A DNA stretch of 64,000 nt, from the NCBI GenBank assembly GCA_017649635.1, contig JAGCGM010000027.1, positions 989-64,988 of the forward strand, given 5' to 3'. Shown here in pieces: positions 49,474-60,345 of the stretch (positions within the stretch are counted from its first letter, which is position 1; every line of letters starts with the position of its first letter). A program made the translations under genes and the position numbers. Source of the stretch: Paludibacteraceae bacterium. Lineage in GTDB: Bacteria; Bacteroidota; Bacteroidia; Bacteroidales; Paludibacteraceae. The notes below the pieces were generated by a model that saw only the letters and a program-made list of their open reading frames with translations, was not told where the DNA came from and did no database searches.

Positions 49474-51858
49474 ATGGCTAATAACGTTCCACAGAAAGCT
49501 CCCGTCAAAAGGGACGAAGTTCTTTTGCAGGACATCTTCAGCATATATCTCTCTAACTGGAAGTGGATTCTCCTTTCGCTCTTCATTTGCTTGGCGATTG
49601 GCACCTACCACATCTTGACCACTCCTCCGTCCTATAAATGCACCTCCTCCCTCCTGATCAAACAGGACAAGGACGGGCAATCGCTTTTGGGCGACGTGGC
49701 GATGTCCATGACGGATATTGGTCTCTCCCAGTTCAAAATCAACACCTCGAACGTGATCATGACGTTCCAGACGCCTGATATCATCCACACGGTGATTCAG
49801 CGCCTGCACCTGAACGACAGCTATACGGTGAAGGGTACATTCCGTGACGAGATCCTCTATGGATCCTCCCTTCCTTTCACCCTCTCCTTCATCGATATGC
49901 CGAACCATGGCGAGGGCAACCTGGTCGCTTGCCTCAAGTCGGACAGTTTGGTACATCTCACCAACTTCGCCATAGGGGATTCGCTCTTCAAGGAGGAGTA
50001 CACCGTCCACATGGGCGACACGATCCTCTCTCCGCTGGGACGCATCTCCGTGCAACGCAACAACTATTACACGGGGGACAGCTTCACCCGACCTATCCAA
50101 ATTGCTCACATCAGCGCCTACGACGCTATCGGAGAGTTCAAGGAGAAGCTCTCGGTCTCCCTCCGTGACAAGATGGGCACGGTCTTCGACCTCTCCTTCA
50201 CCGACCAGAGCCGTGAGCGTGCGATCGACGTGCTGAAGATGGTGACGAACGTCTACGACGAGTTCTGGATGCAGGACAAGAACAAGGTGACACTGAGCAC
50301 CGTGAACTTCATCACGCAAAGGCTTCGCATCCTGGAGGACGACCTGAACTCCGTGGATGGTGAGATCGCCACCTACAAGAGTAGCCAGCGCATCCCCGAC
50401 ATCCAAGCCACCGCATCCTACGACCTGAGCTTGGCGGGCGAGAACGAACGTAACCTGCAGCAACACGCCAACGAACTCACCGTAGCGCAATACCTCCTGA
50501 ATTTCCTCAAGGAGAACAAGGATAAACTCATGCCGGCCAACGTGGGCGTCACGGAACAGAGCATTCAGTCCCAAATCGCCGAATACAATAAGCTGACCCT
50601 CCAACGAAGCCGCTTCGTGGAGAGCAGTAGCGAGGAGAACCTCCTCGTGAAGGACATCGACAACCAACTCGTCGCATTGCGTGGGGCGATCATCTCCTCC
50701 GTCGAGAACTACATCACCGCCCTGCAGCTCCAGTTGAACTCCTACGAGACGAACCGACACGAGATCAACTCACGCATCAGCTCCAACCCGAGACAAGCGG
50801 GCCACCTCCTTTCGGCAGAACGCCAACAGAAGGTGAAGGAAGGGCTCTACCTCTTCCTGCTGCAGAAGAAGGAGGAATTCGAGATCTCCCAGGCCTTCAC
50901 CGCCTACGACACGCGCGTCATCATGGAGCCTGAGTACGGGGGAGGCGACAAGCCTTTCTCCCCGAACAAGAAGAACGTGCTCGCCCTGGCATTGCTGTTG
51001 GGCTTGGCCATTCCATTCGTCATTCTCTACGTGAGGGAGTTGTTGAACACACGGGTAAGAGGGCGCAAGGACTTGGAGTCGCTCACCATCCCATACGTAG
51101 GTGAGATACCGCTCGTCTCCCAGAAGAACCATATCAGCCCCTTCTCCTTCCTGCGTAAGGAAGAGACGGATGAGGAGGTGGAGTTGGTGGTCAAACCGCA
51201 GAGCCGCGACATCATCAACGAGGCCTTCCGCGTCATCCGTACCAACACGGAGTTCATGTGCAAGGAGGATGGCGCCGCGACCATCATGATCACATCCGCC
51301 AACATCAACAGTGGAAAGACATTCATATCCAGCAACTTGGCACTCTCCTTCGCCATCAACGGCAAGCGGGTGATCGCCCTCGACCTGGACCTCCGCAAGG
51401 CGACGCTCTCCAAAACGTTCGACTGTCCGAGACACCATGGCGTGGTCGACTACCTCAGCGGCAACGAGAAGGATTTCCACGGACTCATCGTGCATCAGAC
51501 CCTGGACATCCTGCCTGCGGGCAAACTGCCACCGAACCCTGCCGAATTGCTCACCTCCAGCCACTTGGGCGATCTGATCACCGAGTTGCGGAAGGAGTAT
51601 GACTATATCTTCATCGACTGTCCGCCGGTTGAGATCGTCACCGACGCCGATATCATCAAGCAATGGGCGGATATGACCCTCTTCGTCGTCCGCGCCAACC
51701 TCCTCGAAAAGGCTATTCTGCCGGATATCGAGAAGTACTATACGGACAAACGTTTCAACAAGCTGGCCATCGTCCTCAACGGTACCGAATCCATCGGCCA
51801 CTACGGCTATAAATACGGGTACTACAAAGGCAAATACGGCTACTACGGCCACGAGTAA
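49474..51858 (+). CDS. wzc: Wzc-type chain-length regulator / BY tyrosine autokinase (locus 3)
   Basis: Walker A SANINSGKTF, A' VIALDLDLRKAT, Walker B IFIDCPPV, Tyr-rich tail GHYGYKYGYYKGKYGYYGHE. Confidence 0.9.
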   Translation: MANNVPQKAPVKRDEVLLQDIFSIYLSNWKWILLSLFICLAIGTYHILTTPPSYKCTSSLLIKQDKDGQSLLGDVAMSMTDIGLSQFKINTSNVIMTFQTPDIIHTVIQRLHLNDSYTVKGTFRDEILYGSSLPFTLSFIDMPNHGEGNLVACLKSDSLVHLTNFAIGDSLFKEEYTVHMGDTILSPLGRISVQRNNYYTGDSFTRPIQIAHISAYDAIGEFKEKLSVSLRDKMGTVFDLSFTDQSRERAIDVLKMVTNVYDEFWMQDKNKVTLSTVNFITQRLRILEDDLNSVDGEIATYKSSQRIPDIQATASYDLSLAGENERNLQQHANELTVAQYLLNFLKENKDKLMPANVGVTEQSIQSQIAEYNKLTLQRSRFVESSSEENLLVKDIDNQLVALRGAIISSVENYITALQLQLNSYETNRHEINSRISSNPRQAGHLLSAERQQKVKEGLYLFLLQKKEEFEISQAFTAYDTRVIMEPEYGGGDKPFSPNKKNVLALALLLGLAIPFVILYVRELLNTRVRGRKDLESLTIPYVGEIPLVSQKNHISPFSFLRKEETDEEVELVVKPQSRDIINEAFRVIRTNTEFMCKEDGAATIMITSANINSGKTFISSNLALSFAINGKRVIALDLDLRKATLSKTFDCPRHHGVVDYLSGNEKDFHGLIVHQTLDILPAGKLPPNPAELLTSSHLGDLITELRKEYDYIFIDCPPVEIVTDADIIKQWADMTLFVVRANLLEKAILPDIEKYYTDKRFNKLAIVLNGTESIGHYGYKYGYYKGKYGYYGHE

Positions 51859-51875
51859 TTCTTAATTCAAAATTC
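51856..51875 (-). repeat. Right arm of the 20-bp inverted repeat (plus strand TAATTCTTAATTCAAAATTC)
   Basis: Exact reverse complement of 48343-48362. It starts on the wzc3 stop codon. Confidence 0.8.
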
Positions 51876-51891
51876 AAAATTCATAATTCCC

Positions 51892-52866
51892 ATGCCCTCC
51901 ATCTCCATCATCTGCCCAGTCTACCAAGCCGAAGCATACCTGGACAGATGCGTGCAATCCATTCTGGCGCAGACCTTCACCGACTTCGAGCTGGTGCTGG
52001 TCGACGATGGCAGCCGTGACCGTAGCGGGGAGATGTGCGACGAATATGCCCGTAAGGACAGCCGCATACATGCCTATCACAAGCCCAACGGCGGACTATG
52101 CAGCGCGCGGAACATGGGACTTGACCATATCTCGGGCGAATACTCCGTCCATGTGGACCCCGACGACTGGCTGGAGCCCACCATGCTGGAGGAACTCTAT
52201 GCGAAGGCGAAGGAAGACGACGCCGACATGGTGATCTGCGATATCTTCATCAACCGTAACGGCAAGCAATACTACTCCAAACAGGAGCCAGAGGCGCTGG
52301 ACCACGAAACGGTCATGAAGGGTTTCTTCCATGACCTCCACTCCGCATGCTGGAACAAGCTGGTGCGCCGTTCCTGCTACACGAGCCGAGGCCTCCGCTT
52401 CCCCGACAAGCTCTACATCTGGGAAGACATGTACTTCAACGCCTCCCTCTGCATGGAGGATATCAAAATCGTCTATTTGAACAAAGCATTCTATCACTAC
52501 GACTGCTCTTCGAACCCTAATTCCTTGGTGCGGACCTGCCGCCCGGAAACCGTCGAATCGCAGAAGTGGGTGATCAGTCATTTCGAACATATTCTGTCGG
52601 ATCCTTCATGGTTGGACAACCTCAAGATGGGCACGAAAGAGCGCCTCTTCTATTCCAGGTTGGGCAACGGGAAGGATCTGTACGACCTCTATCCGGAGGT
52701 GAATGAAACATTCCTATCGGGAAGCCGCTCCTCATCCATTGTGGGACGGTGGACGACCCATGCGCTCAGGCATCCGTCGCTTTGTGGCGCATACCGCCTG
52801 ATGCTCTCCGCGGAAGAGTCCGCGAGAACGCTGGCCGGAAAAGTGAAGAGATTCTTTATCGGCTAA
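51892..52866 (+). CDS. Glycosyltransferase family 2
   Basis: ISIICPVYQAEAYLDRCVQSILAQTFTDFELVLVDDGSRD...VDPDDW. Confidence 0.85.
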   Translation: MPSISIICPVYQAEAYLDRCVQSILAQTFTDFELVLVDDGSRDRSGEMCDEYARKDSRIHAYHKPNGGLCSARNMGLDHISGEYSVHVDPDDWLEPTMLEELYAKAKEDDADMVICDIFINRNGKQYYSKQEPEALDHETVMKGFFHDLHSACWNKLVRRSCYTSRGLRFPDKLYIWEDMYFNASLCMEDIKIVYLNKAFYHYDCSSNPNSLVRTCRPETVESQKWVISHFEHILSDPSWLDNLKMGTKERLFYSRLGNGKDLYDLYPEVNETFLSGSRSSSIVGRWTTHALRHPSLCGAYRLMLSAEESARTLAGKVKRFFIG

Positions 52867-52905
52867 CGATGAGGGGAAACCTTCCTCGTTTCAAACGCTA
52901 TTTGA

Positions 52906-53862
52906 ATGGATAAACGAATTGAAATGGACAGTAAAACTGTTCCCTCGCCGAAGGTGTCGGTCATCGTGCCGATCTATGGTGTGGAACACTACATCGAACG
53001 TTGCGCACGCTCTCTGTTCTCGCAGACTTTCAAGAGCGTGGAGTTCATCTTCGTCAACGACTGCACGAAGGATGGCTCCATGGATGTGCTCTCCGACGTG
53101 AGAAAGGAGTACCCGGAGGCGGACGTCAAGGTCATCAACCTAGAACACAACACGGGTCTGCCGCAGGCCCGACGAGCCGGAGTGGGGCAGGCCACAGGGG
53201 ATTACATCCTGCATGTGGACTCCGACGACTGGGTCGAGCCCGACATGGTGGAGCGGCTCTACCAACGGGCGGTGGAGACGGGTGCGGATATGGTATGTTG
53301 CGACTGGTCGGAGGAATACGAGGACCGCGACGAGGTCTTCAGCCACTACGAGGCATCCCGCGACATCTATTACGAGACCATCCTCGCACTGGAGACGGAC
53401 GCTTATGTATGGAGCCGTCTGACGAAACGTGAGGCCTACAACGGACTGGAGTTCCCGACCTGCAATATGTTCGAGGACTTCGTGATCACCTCGCAGTTGG
53501 TGGCCAACTGCAGCACCATCGAGTTCGTCCACGCCCCGCTGTACCACTACCGACGGAGCAACGCCTCCTCGATCCGCTCCTCGGCGGACACAAGGATGAT
53601 ACTCACACAGGAGGTAGAGAACATCTTCAACGTATACAAACGGGTGACGGAAAGAGAACCCGGTCAACATAAACGGGCGGTCGGACGAATGCTCTTCGCC
53701 ATGGGTTACCACCTCATGAGGCACAATCTGCACAGCTGCCTTTCGAAGGAGCAACGACGCGCCATCTCAAGCGGCATCCGCACCCATCTGCCTAACAGAT
53801 CCTTGGGGTTCTCCATGACCAAACAGATTGTGTTGTGGATGAAGGTATGGATCATGAGGTAA
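52906..53862 (+). CDS. Glycosyltransferase family 2
   Basis: VSVIVPIYGVEHYIERCARSLFSQTF...FVNDCTKDGS...VDSDDW. Confidence 0.85.
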   Translation: MDKRIEMDSKTVPSPKVSVIVPIYGVEHYIERCARSLFSQTFKSVEFIFVNDCTKDGSMDVLSDVRKEYPEADVKVINLEHNTGLPQARRAGVGQATGDYILHVDSDDWVEPDMVERLYQRAVETGADMVCCDWSEEYEDRDEVFSHYEASRDIYYETILALETDAYVWSRLTKREAYNGLEFPTCNMFEDFVITSQLVANCSTIEFVHAPLYHYRRSNASSIRSSADTRMILTQEVENIFNVYKRVTEREPGQHKRAVGRMLFAMGYHLMRHNLHSCLSKEQRRAISSGIRTHLPNRSLGFSMTKQIVLWMKVWIMR

Positions 53863-53885
53863 CCGCCATGAATGCAGGTTCCGGT

Positions 53886-54008
53886 CCGTACAGACGCAAT
53901 GCCCGATCCGTACAGACGCAAAATTTTGCGTCTCTACAATGCCCAACCGCACAATGTAGCATATTGCACCATGCGATACCGCATAGATGCATGAATAATG
54001 CGTCCCAT
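53886..54008. repeat. Palindrome-containing repeat unit (truncated half copy 53886-53902, then a full unit with palindrome AGACGCAAAATTTTGCGTCT at 53914-53933)
   Basis: Perfect 20-bp palindrome. The unit tail (caatgcccaaccgcac...aataatgcgtcccat) recurs at 55205-55278. Confidence 0.85.
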
Positions 54009-54044
54009 ATACGGGTAAATATTTGCCCACACCGAAAAGATTGT

Positions 54045-54052
54045 TATCTTTG
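54045..54052 (+). promoter_or_regulatory. Candidate -7 box TATCTTTG for the Rpn-like gene
   Basis: Exact TAnnTTTG match 27 nt upstream of ATG 54079. Confidence 0.4.
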
Positions 54053-54078
54053 TGTCGGAAAATTGAAGAAGAGCGACT

Positions 54079-55044
54079 ATGTCAAAATATCTGAGCCCCA
54101 AGGCGGACATAACCTTCAAGAAGGTATTCGGTGAGCACAAGAACCTGACCATCAGTTTCTTGAATGCCCTGCTGGACTTCGAGGACAAGGCGAAGATTGT
54201 CTCCATCGAGTACCAGACACCGGAGATGTTCCCCGAGACGCCCACGAGGAAGTACTCCATCGTGGACGTGCGCTGCAAGGATGACCGCGGGCGCTCCTTC
54301 ATCGTGGAGATGCAGATGGTCTGGAACTCGGACTTCAAGCAACGCATCCTCCACAACACGACACGGGCCTACAGCAACCAGCTGGGGCAGGGGAAACCCT
54401 TCGCGGACGCCATGCCCGTCTATGCGCTCTGTCTTATCGACGACACCTTCGAACCGACGCTCAAGAGCCAGCCGGACGACATGTTGGTCAGGGAGTGCAG
54501 CCCCTACTACGGGCAGGACTTCTACCACCACTACATGCTGACGGAGGACGGACACCCCGACCGCATCATCGAGGGGCTCAACATCATACTGGTGGAGCTG
54601 CCGAAGTTCACACCCATGTCGGGTTCCGACAAACGGATGATGGCGCTTTGGCTACGCTTCCTGACAGAGATTGACGAACAGACGACCGTCGTGCCGAAGG
54701 AGATGCTCAACTCCGAGGAGATCAAGGAGGCGCTCGGCATCGTGGAACGCTCCGTCTACACGGACGCCCAGATCCTCGCCTACGACAAGTTCTGGCAGGA
54801 CGTCGACTACTCCAACCACTTCGACCCTGACTACCACTACGGGCTGGGCAGGTCCAAGGGTAGAGAGGAAGGCCTTCAGGAAGGTCTAATAGAGGGGAGA
54901 GCGAAAGGTTTAAAAGAAGGTCTGAAGGAGGGTGAGCGAAAGGGAAAGATGTCGATCGCCAAGAGGTTGAAGGAAAAGGGCATCCCCCCCGAGGAGATCG
55001 CAGAGATCACAGGGTTATCCATCAGCGAAATAGCGCACCTGTAA
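54079..55044 (+). CDS. Rpn/YhgA-like PD-(D/E)XK recombination-promoting nuclease ('putative transposase' family)
   Basis: Family N-terminus YLSPKADITFKKVFGEHKNLTISFLNALL and nuclease core IVDVRCKDDRGRSFIVEMQ. The C-terminus has EG-rich repeats and an HTH-like ending (EIAEITGLSISEIAHL). Confidence 0.8.
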   Translation: MSKYLSPKADITFKKVFGEHKNLTISFLNALLDFEDKAKIVSIEYQTPEMFPETPTRKYSIVDVRCKDDRGRSFIVEMQMVWNSDFKQRILHNTTRAYSNQLGQGKPFADAMPVYALCLIDDTFEPTLKSQPDDMLVRECSPYYGQDFYHHYMLTEDGHPDRIIEGLNIILVELPKFTPMSGSDKRMMALWLRFLTEIDEQTTVVPKEMLNSEEIKEALGIVERSVYTDAQILAYDKFWQDVDYSNHFDPDYHYGLGRSKGREEGLQEGLIEGRAKGLKEGLKEGERKGKMSIAKRLKEKGIPPEEIAEITGLSISEIAHL

Positions 55045-55046
55045 AA

Positions 55047-55478
55047 TCGCACAGGCGAATAATAGCGCCCATCATGTGATGCAGGTCCCGGTCCGTACAG
55101 ACGCAATGCATTGCGTCTCTACCATGCCTAACCGCACAGATGCACGATAATGCACCAACATGCGAGGCGAGGCGACCTCCGTACAGACGCAAAATTTTGC
55201 GTCTCTACATTGCCTAACCGCACTGATGTAGCATATTGCGCCATGCGATACCGCACAGGCGAATAATAGCGCCCATCATGCGAGGCGGGTTCCGGTCCGT
55301 ACAGACGCAATGCATTGCGTCTCTACCATGCCAATCGCACGGATGCACGATAATGCGCCTACAGACGAGGCGAGGCGATCTCCGTAGAGACGCAAGATTT
55401 TGCGTCTCTACATTGCACCGAAATATGCAGAATTTGTAAGTCATTTACAAAAATTACATATTTTTCACCATATACTAT
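55047..55478. repeat. Tandem array of palindrome-containing repeat units (two alternating unit types forming a super-unit of about 204 bp, present about twice)
   Basis: 20-bp palindromes at 55099-55118 and 55303-55322 (AGACGCAATGCATTGCGTCT), 55185-55204 (AGACGCAAAATTTTGCGTCT) and 55388-55407 (one mismatch). The flanking unit sequence is conserved. Confidence 0.85.
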
Positions 55479-55481
55479 CAT

Positions 55482-55489
55482 TATATTTG
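55482..55489 (+). promoter_or_regulatory. Candidate -7 box TATATTTG for the ATPase/RloB pair
   Basis: Exact TAnnTTTG match 35 nt upstream of ATG 55524, directly after the end of the repeat module. Confidence 0.4.
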
Positions 55490-55523
55490 CTAAATTCGCG
55501 TGTAACAGGAAATTTATAGCATT

Positions 55524-56852
55524 ATGTTGGTAGATTTTTCAGTCGAAAATTTTCTTTCCTTCAACAGCAGGCAAACAATAACGTTTGAACCTGACACGAA
55601 AGTGAAGGGGTTGGAGGATCATTATTTCATATCCGTCCAAGATAAACAGAAAGGGCGCACGCTCAATTTGTTGAAGATTGGGATGATATATGGCGCCAAC
55701 GCATCAGGGAAAACCAATCTCCTGAAAGCGCTGAATTATCTGAAAAAGATTGCGTTAAGGACAAAGACAGAAAAGAATACCCCTTTGTCATTCGTTCCAT
55801 TCGAACTTGATTATTCGAAAAACACGTCAATGGAGGTGAACTTCATTTCCAATGACACCAAGTACAATTATAAGATTGAATTCAACAAATATTCCGTTGT
55901 ATACGAAGAACTTAACGAGTATCCCTATTTGACGGCCGGGAAAAGCAAGAACATCTATAAACGGACAACGGATGTAAACAAGCAGTTGTCGGACATTGAA
56001 TTCGGGAAAGGACAGAATGTGGACCCGATGATAGCAAAAATGCTAAACATCAGCACATTGTGGAACGAGACTGTGCTTGCCGGTTTTTCTAAAATAAGTG
56101 CGGACATAGAAGCCTTAAGAATTGTAAGTGAATGGTTCAATGACTATTTGGAAGAGTTGATGCCCTGGCAAACGTCTTTGGACATGTTATTGGCGGAGGA
56201 TATAAACGACCACAGGGTAAACGAGGCGGATGTGATAAGCGCGTTAAAAAGGGCAGATTTTAATATCTCGGGAATATCAATCGAAAAAAGGGCTCCCTTG
56301 ACGAGTTATTTGCAGGATGTGGTTGAATCGTACAACGGAGAGTGTAATATAAAAGAGGCATTCGATGTGTTGGATGACATAGACAGCAATACGGTTCCGC
56401 AGATAAAGCTAAAGCACCGGACAGGGCAGAAAGAGTATGAACTGCCATATACGCTTGAGTCGGAAGGGACAAAGCGTTATTTCGGGCTGATGGGGATACT
56501 CTTGAAATTGACGGAATCAGAGAAGTTCATGATGATCGACGAATTGGATACGTCATTGCATCCCGAATTATATGAAGCGTTTATCGTCTCGTTCCTGAAG
56601 AATGTCAGAGGGTCGCAGTTGCTCTTCACGACCCACAACCGCGAATTCCTGCAAAAGAAGCGTATGCTACGGAAAGATGCGTTGTGGATAACGGACAAGC
56701 GGGAAGATGGCTCCACCGAGGTATATTCGTTCGCGGACTTCGACAGTTCTGTGATTCGGGACACGACAAGCATATACAATGCGTATAGCATCGGCAAACT
56801 GGGTGGTGTCCCGAACAACGCTAGTGATTTGATATTCAAAACCGAAGGATAA
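55524..56852 (+). CDS. ABC/AAA_21-like ATPase (abortive-infection AbiLi-like / OLD-ATPase-like)
   Basis: N-terminus MLVDFSVENFLSFNS, Walker A YGANASGKTNLLKAL, Walker B/D-loop MMIDELDTSLHP and H-loop LLFTTHN. This is the usual layout of SMC/ABC-like defence ATPases. Confidence 0.75.
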   Translation: MLVDFSVENFLSFNSRQTITFEPDTKVKGLEDHYFISVQDKQKGRTLNLLKIGMIYGANASGKTNLLKALNYLKKIALRTKTEKNTPLSFVPFELDYSKNTSMEVNFISNDTKYNYKIEFNKYSVVYEELNEYPYLTAGKSKNIYKRTTDVNKQLSDIEFGKGQNVDPMIAKMLNISTLWNETVLAGFSKISADIEALRIVSEWFNDYLEELMPWQTSLDMLLAEDINDHRVNEADVISALKRADFNISGISIEKRAPLTSYLQDVVESYNGECNIKEAFDVLDDIDSNTVPQIKLKHRTGQKEYELPYTLESEGTKRYFGLMGILLKLTESEKFMMIDELDTSLHPELYEAFIVSFLKNVRGSQLLFTTHNREFLQKKRMLRKDALWITDKREDGSTEVYSFADFDSSVIRDTTSIYNAYSIGKLGGVPNNASDLIFKTEG

Positions 56853-57520
56853 TGGCCCGCAGGAAAAACAGGAAAGATGCGCATCCCGTTGGTTATGTCC
56901 TGATTGCCGATGGCGACACCGAAAAATGGTACGTTGAGTTGGTTAAGGATTATTATGGACTAAAGGTAAAGATACAGCCGGAGTTGTCATGCGGTTCGAT
57001 AACGGATCAATACGAATTGGTGAAAGAATCGATCGCGAAGGGATATGAGCATGTTTTTTGGATGATTGATTTCGATTGTGTCCTGAAGGAAAACAAGGAA
57101 ACCAAGAGTGCCAATAGCGTTTTGCAAAGTTTCAAGAGTTGTTACCAGAAGGCCAAAAGCAGGAAGGAATGGAAAGATAAGCTGACCATCATAGTGAATA
57201 ATCCATGTCTTGAATATTGGTTTTATCTGCACATGAACCCGCTCTCGACGAAATATTTCGGGACATACAAGGAACTGTTGCCTGAATTGCGGAAGTTTAA
57301 GATTGACGACAACTTGTTTGGGAAGTACAATAAAAGCAAGAAGGACTTCTACAGCAGTCCGAAGAATCTGTTCGAGAAGCTACTGCCATACAAGCGAATG
57401 ATCGATTCAGAGCCATTAAAATCCTTTGACATCGAGGCATGCCAGCAAGAAAGCGTCTCGGAAATGCCTAAATTGTTCGAAACGTTAGAAAAGGGGATGC
57501 ATAGCGGGCAGAAAGAATAA
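56852..57520 (+). CDS. RloB-like protein (AbiLii-like, TOPRIM-related partner of the ATPase)
   Basis: Motif order VLIADGDTEKWY ... VFWMIDFD ... IVNNPCLEYWFYLHM matches RloB-family signatures (CEGxxTE / VxDxD / NPCFELW). TAATG 1-nt overlap with the ATPase gene. Confidence 0.65.
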   Translation: MARRKNRKDAHPVGYVLIADGDTEKWYVELVKDYYGLKVKIQPELSCGSITDQYELVKESIAKGYEHVFWMIDFDCVLKENKETKSANSVLQSFKSCYQKAKSRKEWKDKLTIIVNNPCLEYWFYLHMNPLSTKYFGTYKELLPELRKFKIDDNLFGKYNKSKKDFYSSPKNLFEKLLPYKRMIDSEPLKSFDIEACQQESVSEMPKLFETLEKGMHSGQKE

Positions 57521-57523
57521 AGA

Positions 57524-57653
57524 AATGCGCCTACATGCGAGGCGAGGCGACCTCCGTACAGACGCAAAATTTTGCGTCTCTACAATGCCTAACCAAAATA
57601 TGCAAAATTTGTAAGTCATTTACAAAAATTACATATTTTTCACCATATACTAT
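57524..57653. repeat. Repeat module: palindrome unit plus a 58-bp AT-rich tail, a direct repeat of 55352-55478
   Basis: About 90% identical by hand alignment to 55352-55478. Contains palindrome AGACGCAAAATTTTGCGTCT at 57560-57579. The last 58 bp differ at a single base. Confidence 0.85.
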
Positions 57654-57794
57654 TTCTAGAATAGAGAATAAAAAATGCTTTGACAAGGTCAGAGAAAATA
57701 TTATAGAGCTCCTGATCATAAATATAGTTTTTTTGTATTCACAATGTAATACAATAGGGTAATTTGTATAAAAACGATAAAGCCTTGGAAATAA

Positions 57795-60071
57795 ATGTTG
57801 AATTATGATTTTCATAATTTGTTAAGTGCATATGAGTTCGAATGCTTTTCTCGTGACTTAATAAACGCACATGAAAAACTTAATTTGGGCAATTTTGCGG
57901 AAGGGAAAGATGGCGGAATTGACCTTCGTTGTACTTATGGGGAAGAGACTGTGATTGTTCAAGTCAAACGATACATGAACTATAATGAACTAAAAAGCAC
58001 ATTGAAGAAAGAGGTTGATAAAGTACGAAAACTTAACCCCACGCGATATCTGCTAACAACATCTGTAGACCTAACTCCAGATAACAAAAAAGAGATAGCA
58101 AAATTGTTCCATCCGTATATAAAAAGGGAAGAAGATATTTGGGCAAAACAAGATTTAAACAAAATTTTAGAAGGATACCCTAACGTTGAGCGGCAATATT
58201 ATAAGCTGTGGTTAAGTAGCACTAATGTGCTCAATACTATACTCCACAAAAATATTGTTAATTGGACGAATTTTGAAAAAAAAGAGATTGAAAATGCGGT
58301 CCGTACATATGTGATGAACGATAGCTTTAATGATGCACTAAATAAACTAATTGAAAATCGATATGTTATAATCTCAGGTGAACCTGGCATTGGAAAAACT
58401 ACATTGGCACGTGTACTAGTGATGCATCTTTTATCTCAAAAATTTGCAGACAAAAAGGATTCTACTTGCTATGAAGATTTCCAATATACAAATTACAATA
58501 TTGATGATTTGGCCAAAATGATGCAAGATAACAAGCGCCAAATATTTCTTTTTGATGATTTCCTAGGTCAGATTGCTTTTGAAAAAGGAGAAAAGAATTT
58601 TGATAGTCGAATAATACAGTTCATAAAAGCATGTCAGAGAAACCAGAATAAATTGTTTATTCTTACAACAAGAGAATACATACTTCAACAAGGACTTGCT
58701 TACTATAGTCGGTTTAATGATGGTAAAGGCATTGAATTATCAAAGTGTATCGTAGATTTGGGCAAATATACTCGGTTTGTTAGAGCACAGATTCTATATA
58801 ATCATTTGGTCGCAAATAAAATTCCACAAGCATATATAAATTCAATACTTGAAAGTAAAAACTATTTGAAAATTATTGATCACCGTAATTTTAGTCCTCG
58901 AATTATAGAGACTTTCATCAGTAATGGCACACACGAGCTATGCACTCCCATAGAATATTTTAAAAAAATAATAGGATTCTTTGACCATCCAAATAGCGTA
59001 TGGTTGGATGCTTTTCTTCGCCTTTCAACAATTGAGCAAGAAGCATTGTTGGTATTGTCAACGATGGAGACACCGGTTTTGTATAACAATTGGGAAATAG
59101 CCTATCAACATTTTTTTAAAAAAGTTCATAAAGAGGAAAACTATTTGAGTGACTCAAAATGGAAAAGTACGGTTAAAGTTTTGCAGAACAATTTTATAAA
59201 GACGGAGAAATGTCCAAATGGCATATGCGTAGAATTCCACAATCCAGGAATTAAAGATGTATTGATTGAATATATCAAAAAAGACAATATAATTAGAGAA
59301 CTATTAATCGATAATATCTATTACATTGATCAGCTTTTTGGACTATTTTGTGATTTTTACAATGCAGATATTCCGGATCGTTATCATAAAATTATAGTCA
59401 ATGCATTTGATAAATGTTGGAAGGATTTTAAATGTTGTGATAAGGTTATTTATCGGGAATTCAATAACATAACAACTTATAGCCGATTTCCAATGTCAAA
59501 AATTAGAACACTAAATAGGTTTATTTATAGGTTTAACACAGTGTTAAATGATAACCCTAATTATGTGGGGGAAAAAGTGACCCAAGAACTAATGTCAGAT
59601 GAATCATTTTATATGTCAGAACAACTAGACCTTTTGGGGAAAATTCAGATAACAGGATCTAATCTAGATATGGATTTACTATTTGAAACCTATAAAGAAA
59701 GACTATATAGTAGTGATGATTGTTTGAATTTTGCGAAATCAATAGAGCGTCTTTTCCCCAATCATCTTAATTATTTGGAAACGGATGAATTTTGTGACAT
59801 TACAGAAAAGTATTTGAGAGAAGAATTAGAGATTACTAATAATTCAGACTTAGAAGAATTAGAATCTACAGCAAAAAAATTATGTGATTATCTTCCTTCT
59901 CTTAAGAATAAGTCCGTAATCAATCTTATCGAAGATGCAAATAACGAATATTATGAATATTTAGACTCAAAATACGAATCATATCAAGATGATTATCGTT
60001 ATGAAGGCTACAATCATCGTGAAAAAGAAGATTTTGAAATAGACAGGTTATTTGCGACAATAAAAGAATAA
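57795..60071 (+). CDS. Mrr-like restriction endonuclease domain fused to a STAND-type P-loop NTPase and a helical C-terminal region (Avs-like single-gene defence candidate)
   Basis: N-terminal PD-(D/E)XK context FECFSRDLI...GKDGGIDL...IVQVKRY. Walker A ISGEPGIGKTTLARVL and Walker B IFLFDDFLG, then LFILTTRE. A winged-helix-like stretch EQEALLVLS...VEFHNPGIKDVLIEY. About 250 aa of helical C-terminus with an acidic, Tyr-rich tail. Confidence 0.65.
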   Translation: MLNYDFHNLLSAYEFECFSRDLINAHEKLNLGNFAEGKDGGIDLRCTYGEETVIVQVKRYMNYNELKSTLKKEVDKVRKLNPTRYLLTTSVDLTPDNKKEIAKLFHPYIKREEDIWAKQDLNKILEGYPNVERQYYKLWLSSTNVLNTILHKNIVNWTNFEKKEIENAVRTYVMNDSFNDALNKLIENRYVIISGEPGIGKTTLARVLVMHLLSQKFADKKDSTCYEDFQYTNYNIDDLAKMMQDNKRQIFLFDDFLGQIAFEKGEKNFDSRIIQFIKACQRNQNKLFILTTREYILQQGLAYYSRFNDGKGIELSKCIVDLGKYTRFVRAQILYNHLVANKIPQAYINSILESKNYLKIIDHRNFSPRIIETFISNGTHELCTPIEYFKKIIGFFDHPNSVWLDAFLRLSTIEQEALLVLSTMETPVLYNNWEIAYQHFFKKVHKEENYLSDSKWKSTVKVLQNNFIKTEKCPNGICVEFHNPGIKDVLIEYIKKDNIIRELLIDNIYYIDQLFGLFCDFYNADIPDRYHKIIVNAFDKCWKDFKCCDKVIYREFNNITTYSRFPMSKIRTLNRFIYRFNTVLNDNPNYVGEKVTQELMSDESFYMSEQLDLLGKIQITGSNLDMDLLFETYKERLYSSDDCLNFAKSIERLFPNHLNYLETDEFCDITEKYLREELEITNNSDLEELESTAKKLCDYLPSLKNKSVINLIEDANNEYYEYLDSKYESYQDDYRYEGYNHREKEDFEIDRLFATIKE

Positions 60072-60345
60072 TGTATTAATGTAAAAAAATACACTTAGAA
60101 ATCCATGACATCCCCCCTATATCAAATAACAAACGTATAGAAAAACTGGGAAGCGTACTCTTTCTCAAATCGCACAATTCAAACGGATCTACATATAGGA
60201 ACTATGTTTTTGATTATATGTCATTATAAAAAGTTTCGCTCCTCACAAAAAAACAAAGTTCGGTTAAATCTTCCAAAATAATGATTTGAACCCATGCAAT
60301 CGGATGGATGGAGCAGGAATCGCCTCATGATAATATCTTATATAT

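Follow-up and report, generated by a model that had tools for sequence, protein, structure and literature searches.

Short palindromes of the GTAG-ended superfamily of repetitive extragenic palindromes (REPs) have been described, as have arrays in which REPs are clustered (PMC3733652; PMC2817692); a 2013 survey names no GTAG REPs for Bacteroidetes and reports that head-to-tail REP dimers are rare (PMC3733652). AbiL, an ABC ATPase with a Toprim/OLD-type partner, is related in logic to PARIS (PMC13064643). Here we analyze a 64,000-nt stretch of DNA from a Paludibacteraceae bacterium (the window, to which all coordinates refer), in which two direct repeats, at 55352-55478 (copy 1) and 57524-57653 (copy 2), bracket an AbiL pair, the second one preceding a STAND gene. 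The window lies on a 71-kb contig (C297) of a metagenome-assembled genome (MAG) of 308 contigs that is 89.9% complete with 3.6% contamination; the labels G, L, and C denote compared genomes, loci, and contigs. The nearest named relative is a Paludibacteraceae MAG from the rumen. Each repeat joins two unrelated pieces, a REP unit of about 65 bp and a 58-62-bp piece, the tail, from the region upstream of AbiL. As a REP unit plus an upstream relic of AbiL, the repeat belongs to known kinds of feature. Copy 2 is probably a by-product of recombination: in a defence hotspot that lies 5′ of wzx, REP-mediated unequal recombination and an illegitimate join would have left it behind.

The two copies are closely alike. 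BLAST of 55352-55523 against the genome of origin aligns them at 92% identity across 127 nt (E 2e-47), and a repeat search pairs their tails (55417-55478 and 57592-57653) at 97% over 62 nt. The last 58 nt of both copies contain a single mismatch (98.3% identity), and the two tails share an identical 48-nt core, for which the chance expectation is 0 matches. The distance from the end of copy 1 to the ATG of AbiLi (55524) is 45 nt, while copy 2 starts 3 nt past the stop codon of AbiLii (57520) and ends 141 nt before the ATG of the STAND gene (57795). The tail carries a near-consensus TTTG (55433-36) followed by TATTTTTC (55459-66), in the spacing TTTG-N22-TATTTTTC, and TATATTTG occupies 55482-55489, 3 nt past the end of the repeat. 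A preliminary description of the locus had put the identity at about 90% with one difference in the last 58 bp, had given distances of 45, 3, and 141 bp, and had placed a near-consensus within the tail and a full box after copy 1, all of which agrees with the alignments, the sequence, and the positions of the open reading frames (ORFs).

The palindrome half of the repeat fits a unit of a dispersed GTAG-ended REP-like element, here REP-A, by its short hairpin, its dispersed extragenic distribution, and its GTAG end. Its core is AGACGCAA-N4-TTGCGTCT, with an extended 28-nt form GTAS-AGACGCAA-N4-TTGCGTCT-STAC. The window contains six such palindromes (53914, 55099, 55185, 55303, 55388, 57560) versus 0 in shuffles, and the whole genome holds 24 exact or 32 loose copies spread over 19 contigs. 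For five genomes of the genus the count is 31-64 per genome (0 for a reversed-pattern control), and among 200 genomes sampled across the order, 54 (about 50 families) have the 28-nt form, in up to 35 copies. Within its own genome REP-A sits between ORFs, often directly past a stop codon and mostly among ordinary neighbours. Similar to GTAG-ended REPs, it has a short stable palindrome with a 12-14-bp stem, a 4-nt loop, and a GTAG end on one strand, and similar to REPs in general, it is extragenic, present in tens of copies per genome, frequently placed right after stops, variable in copy number between species, and often clustered with its flanking DNA reiterated in tandem. The 28-nt palindrome GTACAGACGCAAAATTTTGCGTCTCTAC is 93% self-complementary, and REP plus tail fold at -36 to -40 kcal/mol (z -5 to -5.9). 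At the GTAG end the minus strand reads GTAGAGACGCAA..., copy 1 has a plus-strand GTAG as well, and the tag is base-paired.

REP-A also departs from its described relatives. Unlike classical bacterial interspersed mosaic elements, in which REP orientation alternates, its arrays are strictly head-to-tail and thus do not qualify as such elements; all units in 55048-55416 and in the sister species G020 (L011 8893-9549) are direct, at 85-121-nt spacing. Unlike in classical REPs, the GTAG sits in the stem. No link to a REP-associated tyrosine transposase was found: a search of the 89.9%-complete genome returned no PF01797 match, and while Y1_Tnp genes occur in 18 of 29 genomes of the genus, the four loci checked have no REP-A within about 1.5 kb. 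No Rfam family is matched at E<=1 within 53700-57900. The palindrome half of copy 1 (55352-55416) is the final unit of the four-unit array at 55048-55416, whose loops alternate between TGCA and AATT/GATT. Because REP-A is a dispersed family, the approximately 90% identity of the two palindrome halves is a family-level likeness and not evidence of a specific duplication. Two wider associations of REP-A were considered and rejected. A link to PDDEXK_2/Rpn genes is contradicted by the seven PDDEXK_2 matches of G020, which lie away from REP-A, and by the other copies in the genome of origin, which are unlinked; a role of the arrays as general markers of defence genes is contradicted by G020 arrays that adjoin pckA-like, recQ-like, and other ordinary genes.

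The tail, in contrast to this dispersed family, occurs at just two sites in its genome. A pattern scan of 185,579 species genomes and a metagenome collection gave a contig of G020 as the sole other match, where the tail lies upstream of AbiL and has the same REP-to-tail junction as copy 1; the suggestion in the preliminary description to look for other genes following the 58-bp tail thus yielded none but AbiL in these genome and metagenome scans. In the more distant G010, AbiL (70% nucleotide identity) occupies the same place upstream of wzx with a different repeat family around it, and homology to our sequence starts exactly at the tail. Diverged tails are also found 5′ of AbiL in G126 and G043. 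These matches identify the tail as native to the AbiL operon, of whose upstream sequence it forms the distal half.

Within the tail lies a nested palindrome, AAATATG-N5-TTTGTAA-GTCAT-TTACAAA-N5-CATATTT (55421-55463, and 57596-57638 in copy 2; fold z -3.9). Its general form, GTAR-N4-6-YTAC, is present in 11 of 25 AbiL upstream regions in the family versus 20 of 2380 control upstream regions (0.8%), and of the 11 loci, eight have it 46-56 nt before the -7 box and three have it abutting the box. The spacing is 46-47 nt in the genome of origin and in G020, and 53-56 nt in the other positioned loci. Since the compared AbiL loci are related, this enrichment overstates their independence and is a lead, not a test. 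The palindrome looks like the operator of some binding protein. Even where AbiL protein identity falls to about 31%, the GTAA-N5-TTAC form is kept 5′ of the operon.

Promoters of Bacteroidota that are read by sigma-ABfr are said, following Bayley et al. in 2000, to consist of a -33 TTTG and a -7 TAnnTTTG. The AbiL operon corresponds to this arrangement in having an exact TAnnTTTG 42 nt before its ATG, with the tail spanning the -33 region and sequence beyond it. Of the 25 AbiLi loci of the family, 24 have an exact TAnnTTTG at 34-48 nt from the ATG, and across the genome of origin the motif is most frequent at -40 to -30 relative to ORF starts. Copy 1 is predicted to be the working AbiL upstream region, consisting of a distal palindrome and a -7 box. 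Unlike a complete sigma-ABfr promoter, the repeat leaves out the -7 box, and copy 2 has one-mismatch boxes only, so that the repeat on its own does not amount to a complete promoter. A scan for sigma-70 promoters and terminators returned no more sites than shuffled controls, the sigma-70 model being unfit for Bacteroidota promoters.

Comparison with G020 places the junctions of copy 2. Positions 55048-57594 are colinear with G020 L011 9110-11726 at 93.5% identity, and since this alignment ends at the start of the second tail, the REP unit in copy 2 is orthologous to the unit that comes first behind AbiLii in G020. The REP spacer reads 'gcctaacc' in copy 2 and 'gc---acc' before the tail in both copy 1 and G020. 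Beyond its first post-AbiL REP, G020 has further REP sequence and lacks a second tail. The tail of copy 2 matches that of copy 1 at 57 of 58 nt and carries the variants that set our lineage apart from G020. Copy 2 thus appears to be young and specific to this lineage. On its other side, the tail ends within about 20 bp of the point at which homology begins to L026, a locus from another Paludibacteraceae with a STAND gene 73% identical to ours (L026 7849-10279 versus 57646-60079, 79% by BLAST; homology starts at 57646 by BLAST and is clear by eye from 57672). In L026 this point falls among the final codons of a 122-aa gene, which has an HTH_3 gene in front of it; what remains of the 122-aa gene in our locus is 16 codons with an in-frame stop. 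At the right edge, the stop codon of the STAND gene is joined, at a shared TAAtatattaag microhomology, to sequence that in G020 and G015 lies downstream of a 269-aa ORF; 143 nt of this ORF survive in L026. The segment at the right edge matches G020 L011 12915-12990 and G015 L015 5215-5140 at 81-82%, and the wzx remnant within it (60105-60140) comprises the first 11 codons and a stop codon.

These junctions bear on what copy 2 can do. The preliminary description had proposed that each defence unit carries the same upstream module and that this may be a shared promoter or operator. As to the first part, copy 2 adjoins a pseudogene remnant, is followed by no -7 box, and hence did not originate as an upstream module common to the units. 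The second part stands insofar as the tail is an AbiL upstream region with an enriched palindrome, and fails insofar as the -7 box is outside the repeat and has no counterpart after copy 2. The 203 nt before the STAND gene contain no exact TAnnTTTG, only one-mismatch boxes, and the REP hairpin after AbiLii has no T-run. Without a -7 box in copy 2 and without a T-run in the hairpin, the STAND gene is most likely read through from AbiL or weakly transcribed from non-consensus sites, and copy 2 itself would have little or no promoter activity of its own.

The arrangement is most simply accounted for by two steps. Copy 2 would have arisen after the split from the sister species G020. In the first step, an out-of-register homologous exchange between a REP downstream of AbiL and a REP upstream of the tail would have produced either a tandem duplication of AbiL or an AbiL re-acquired beside a resident REP-tail-STAND arrangement. 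In the second, an illegitimate join, by deletion or replacement, would have fused the end of the tail to a 5′-truncated HTH-122aa-STAND unit. Homologous recombination between the nearly identical 58-bp blocks could, as a side effect, also loop out the 2,175-bp AbiL unit. Mechanism and order of these events are what we infer, as no intermediate was seen (tandem AbiL, a tail-STAND arrangement without AbiL, or an HTH-122aa-STAND unit after AbiL).

Besides the missing intermediates, several observations count against copy 2 being a mere by-product. The tail palindrome is strongly enriched before AbiL operons, and the tail also holds the near-consensus TTTG-N22-TATTTTTC. The STAND gene, for its part, lacks a consensus promoter and is without the HTH gene that once lay upstream, so that copy 2 could have been retained by selection. 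Furthermore, direct repeats also flank AbiL in unrelated contexts (G010, G043, and G362), and this recurrence hints at an insertion mechanism more specific than chance recombination.

Species comparison supplies the setting of these events. From the last GT2 or epimerase gene to wzx (window 53863-60145; loci L011, L012, L014, L015, L026, and L079), conserved GT2 genes are followed by REP arrays, then by species-specific cargo, then by wzx. There is no cargo in G013, a 269-aa ORF in G015, AbiL plus the 269-aa ORF in G020, and AbiL in G010. In G008 the N-terminus of PDDEXK_2 runs into a KAP NTPase and is accompanied by an rve fragment; L026 has a Schlafen-type gene (Schlafen/HATPase_c_4/Fic_C), an HTH gene, the 122-aa gene, and STAND; our own locus has PDDEXK_2, AbiL, and STAND. 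The variable region is a defence hotspot inside a polysaccharide locus, and no two of the species examined have the same cargo. For two conserved housekeeping genes, identity is 98-99% to G008, G013, and G015, 94-99% to G020, and 81-83% to G010, and AbiL is absent from the three closest species (G008, G013, and G015). The AbiL block (55048-57594) is 93.5% identical to that of G020, compared with 86.5% for the adjacent GT2 genes (50000-53840), a contrast that is compatible with exchange of the AbiL block between lineages with edges in REP arrays, or with repeated loss. The preliminary idea that the two-gene unit was inserted or exchanged by recombination between the repeats therefore survives in a loose form: the AbiL pair with its tail is an insertion or deletion within REP arrays, at a site whose cargo varies with species.

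As in defence islands and chromosomal defence hotspots, known or candidate defence genes lie together in this region, closely related species carry different cargo, and the bounding genes are conserved. The hotspot differs from them in sitting inside a polysaccharide locus right upstream of wzx and in having its units separated by REP arrays. Searches for related loci by STAND and by AbiLi returned one locus each. REP-A units bracket the PDDEXK_2 gene, and G008 has the same gene at the same site with 96.6% identity. The G008 ortholog is 95-97% identical up to window position 54842, beyond which its reading frame runs on into a 933-aa KAP_NTPase ORF; behind this lies an IS3-type rve fragment, and the gene is split over two contigs (L079 44-2845, G008:C11; L013 8102-8831, G008:C30).

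An unlikely but not negligible alternative to a recombination by-product is that copy 2 was kept as a functional shared control module, its tail giving the STAND gene the distal promoter or operator of AbiL. Both units would then answer to one DNA-binding factor, or copy 2 would act as a weak promoter through TTTG-N22-TATTTTTC. The nested palindrome, with its TTTGTAA-N5-TTACAAA centre, its frequency before AbiL (11/25 versus 20/2380 controls), and its place 46-56 nt before the -7 box in eight loci are what such a module would look like, as is the 57/58 identity of the two tails. The STAND gene is without an exact TAnnTTTG in its 203-nt upstream region, and its relative in L026 has in front of it an HTH_3 'control protein'-like gene that our locus lacks; both points speak for this reading. 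The geometry, however, is unfavourable: the -7 box of AbiL is not in copy 2, TAGAATAG at the equivalent position is a poor match, and the palindrome of copy 2 lies about 185 nt from the STAND ATG, outside the conserved geometry. In addition, the near-consensus promoter in the tail is not kept in G010, G126, and G043, high identity between the copies is expected anyway from a young duplication, and the relatedness of the AbiL loci inflates the enrichment.

A broader proposal, which we regard as doubtful, combines this idea with recombination. Small defence operons of Paludibacteraceae such as AbiL would be stacked and swapped at a hotspot within the capsule locus through out-of-register homologous recombination of local REP-like arrays, the arrays serving as portable homology or landing pads, and the duplicated tail would place STAND under the palindrome-binding regulator of AbiL. 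It would explain both the unrelated flanking repeats in four contexts and the positioned GTAA-N5-TTAC palindrome before AbiL.

Those flanking repeats also lie at the root of a third possibility, that AbiL is a mobile cassette which is excised as a circle and integrated by site-specific or Campbell-type recombination, the repeats being attL/attR-like; this we consider improbable. Of 25 loci of the family, five (our locus, G020, G010, G043, and G362) have direct repeats of 53-218 nt on either side of the AbiL pair, in four independent sequence contexts, whereas 0 of 230 control gene units of the genome of origin reach 60 bits for flanking repeats. In G010, G043, and G362 the repeats are 53-92 nt long and 86-88% identical (L012 6439-6491 and 8614-8666 in G010; L062 5914-5989 and 8414-8489 in G043; L042 in G362), and the 53-nt repeat of G010 is found at these two places only in its genome. 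The spacing from repeat to repeat is nearly equal in three genomes (2175 in ours, 2171 in G020, and 2175 in G010), and AbiL is present or absent at one site among close species. The repeats, however, are unrelated between genomes and their copies only 86-96% alike, which does not suit a conserved att or attC site, and those of our locus and G020 are generic REP array units. Our tail falls inside the cassette as bounded by homology to G010, 20 of the 25 AbiL loci have no flanking repeat, and the 71-kb contig has no tyrosine recombinase (the PF00589 matches of the genome are on C278, C163, and C208), nor does the tail have a GTTRRRY core.

No variant in which the unit at 55479-57523 is empty or replaced between the repeats is present in the 12 distinct contig records listed, from eight samples (of 9 and 7 contigs read), and contigs encoding an identical STAND or AbiLii protein have the same gene order as far as they extend; at the sequence level, the five contigs checked have identical repeats. 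The presence/absence polymorphism that the preliminary description had thought worth seeking was thus not encountered, and together with the restriction of the tail to AbiL this leans, by that description's own standard, to a local event. A 62-aa ORF called on the minus strand of public contigs (57531-57719) overlies the REP unit and tail of copy 2 and has no Pfam match; composed of repeat sequence, it is probably spurious.

The preliminary analogy to integron cassettes delimited by attC sites can be rejected. There is a likeness, in that imperfect palindromic DNA separates promoter-poor, head-to-tail defence genes and cargo varies at a fixed site. Unlike in integrons, neither IntI nor any other tyrosine recombinase is nearby, there is no R′/R″ core pair, and the palindrome is a genome-wide REP that is spread across the order between ordinary genes; the tail elsewhere precedes only AbiL, and the AbiL unit has its own promoter. 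Specifically, the tail contains neither a GTT triplet nor GTTRRRY, GCCTAAC in the REP spacer has no inverted partner, and no module was found after the STAND unit. That a duplicated tail was created by mis-joined repeat-containing reads, as the fragmentation and contamination of the MAG and a Logan contig that breaks inside tail and REP might suggest, is rejected as highly improbable, for four contigs from independent metagenome samples span both repeats with identical order and repeats (ERZ28019289, ERZ28018909, ERZ28653446, and ERZ28653829) and ERZ27256983, which covers copy 2 only, agrees.

The features of the variable region are collected in Table 1. The adjacent AAA_21 ATPase and RloB-like genes, which overlap by 1 nt, fit the AbiL profiles and are thus a predicted AbiL pair. 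Glycosyltransferase genes flank the block on both sides, and an acetyltransferase-like gene (a weak hexapeptide-repeat match) and an EpsG gene lie downstream, neighbours that place the block within a polysaccharide locus.

Table 1. Coordinates of features in the variable region of the 64,000-nt window
Feature	Position	Strand	Evidence or remark
REP-A units (one half and one full palindrome at 53914-53933, with spacer), between GT2 gene and PDDEXK_2 gene	53870..54008	.	
PDDEXK_2 (Rpn-like 'nuclease family transposase') gene	54079..55044	+	Pfam PF12784, E 2.4e-36
Four REP-A units, head-to-tail; palindromes 55099, 55185, 55303, 55388	55048..55416	.	
Tail copy 1, predicted distal upstream region of AbiL operon	55417..55478	+	G020 ortholog 95%; diverged homologs in G010, G126, G043
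TATATTTG, predicted Bacteroidota -7 box, 42 nt 5′ of AbiLi ATG	55482..55489	+	TAnnTTTG consensus
AbiLi, ABC/AAA_21 ATPase	55524..56852	+	PADLOC AbiLi E 1.3e-73; Pfam AAA_21 E 3e-30
AbiLii, RloB-like, Toprim/OLD-type partner	56852..57520	+	Pfam RloB E 7.7e-16; PADLOC AbiLii E 1.1e-13
Single REP-A unit, palindrome half of copy 2; palindrome 57556-57583	57524..57591	.	
Tail copy 2, partial duplicate; palindrome present, no -7 box	57592..57653	+	
Stop-containing remnant, last ~16 codons of L026-type 122-aa gene	57654..57706	+	Left edge of STAND unit
Mrr_cat + nSTAND3 single-gene defence candidate, PADLOC PDC-S73	57795..60071	+	PADLOC E 2.5e-131; Pfam nSTAND3 E 1.5e-48
Right edge of variable region: intergenic and 12-codon wzx 5′-end remnant (60105-60140)	60069..60145	+	

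Overall, a tidy layout of repeat, gene, repeat, and gene need not be a cassette system; in this locus it consists of a generic REP unit and the relic of an upstream region. REP-like arrays are hereby documented in Bacteroidales; those of this locus lie at the edges of gene-content changes, within a defence hotspot just 5′ of wzx. The excess of direct repeats flanking AbiL pairs and the operator-like palindrome kept before AbiL operons are two testable leads. If arrays do drive the accretion of cassettes, they would provide a recombinase-independent route to defence islands.

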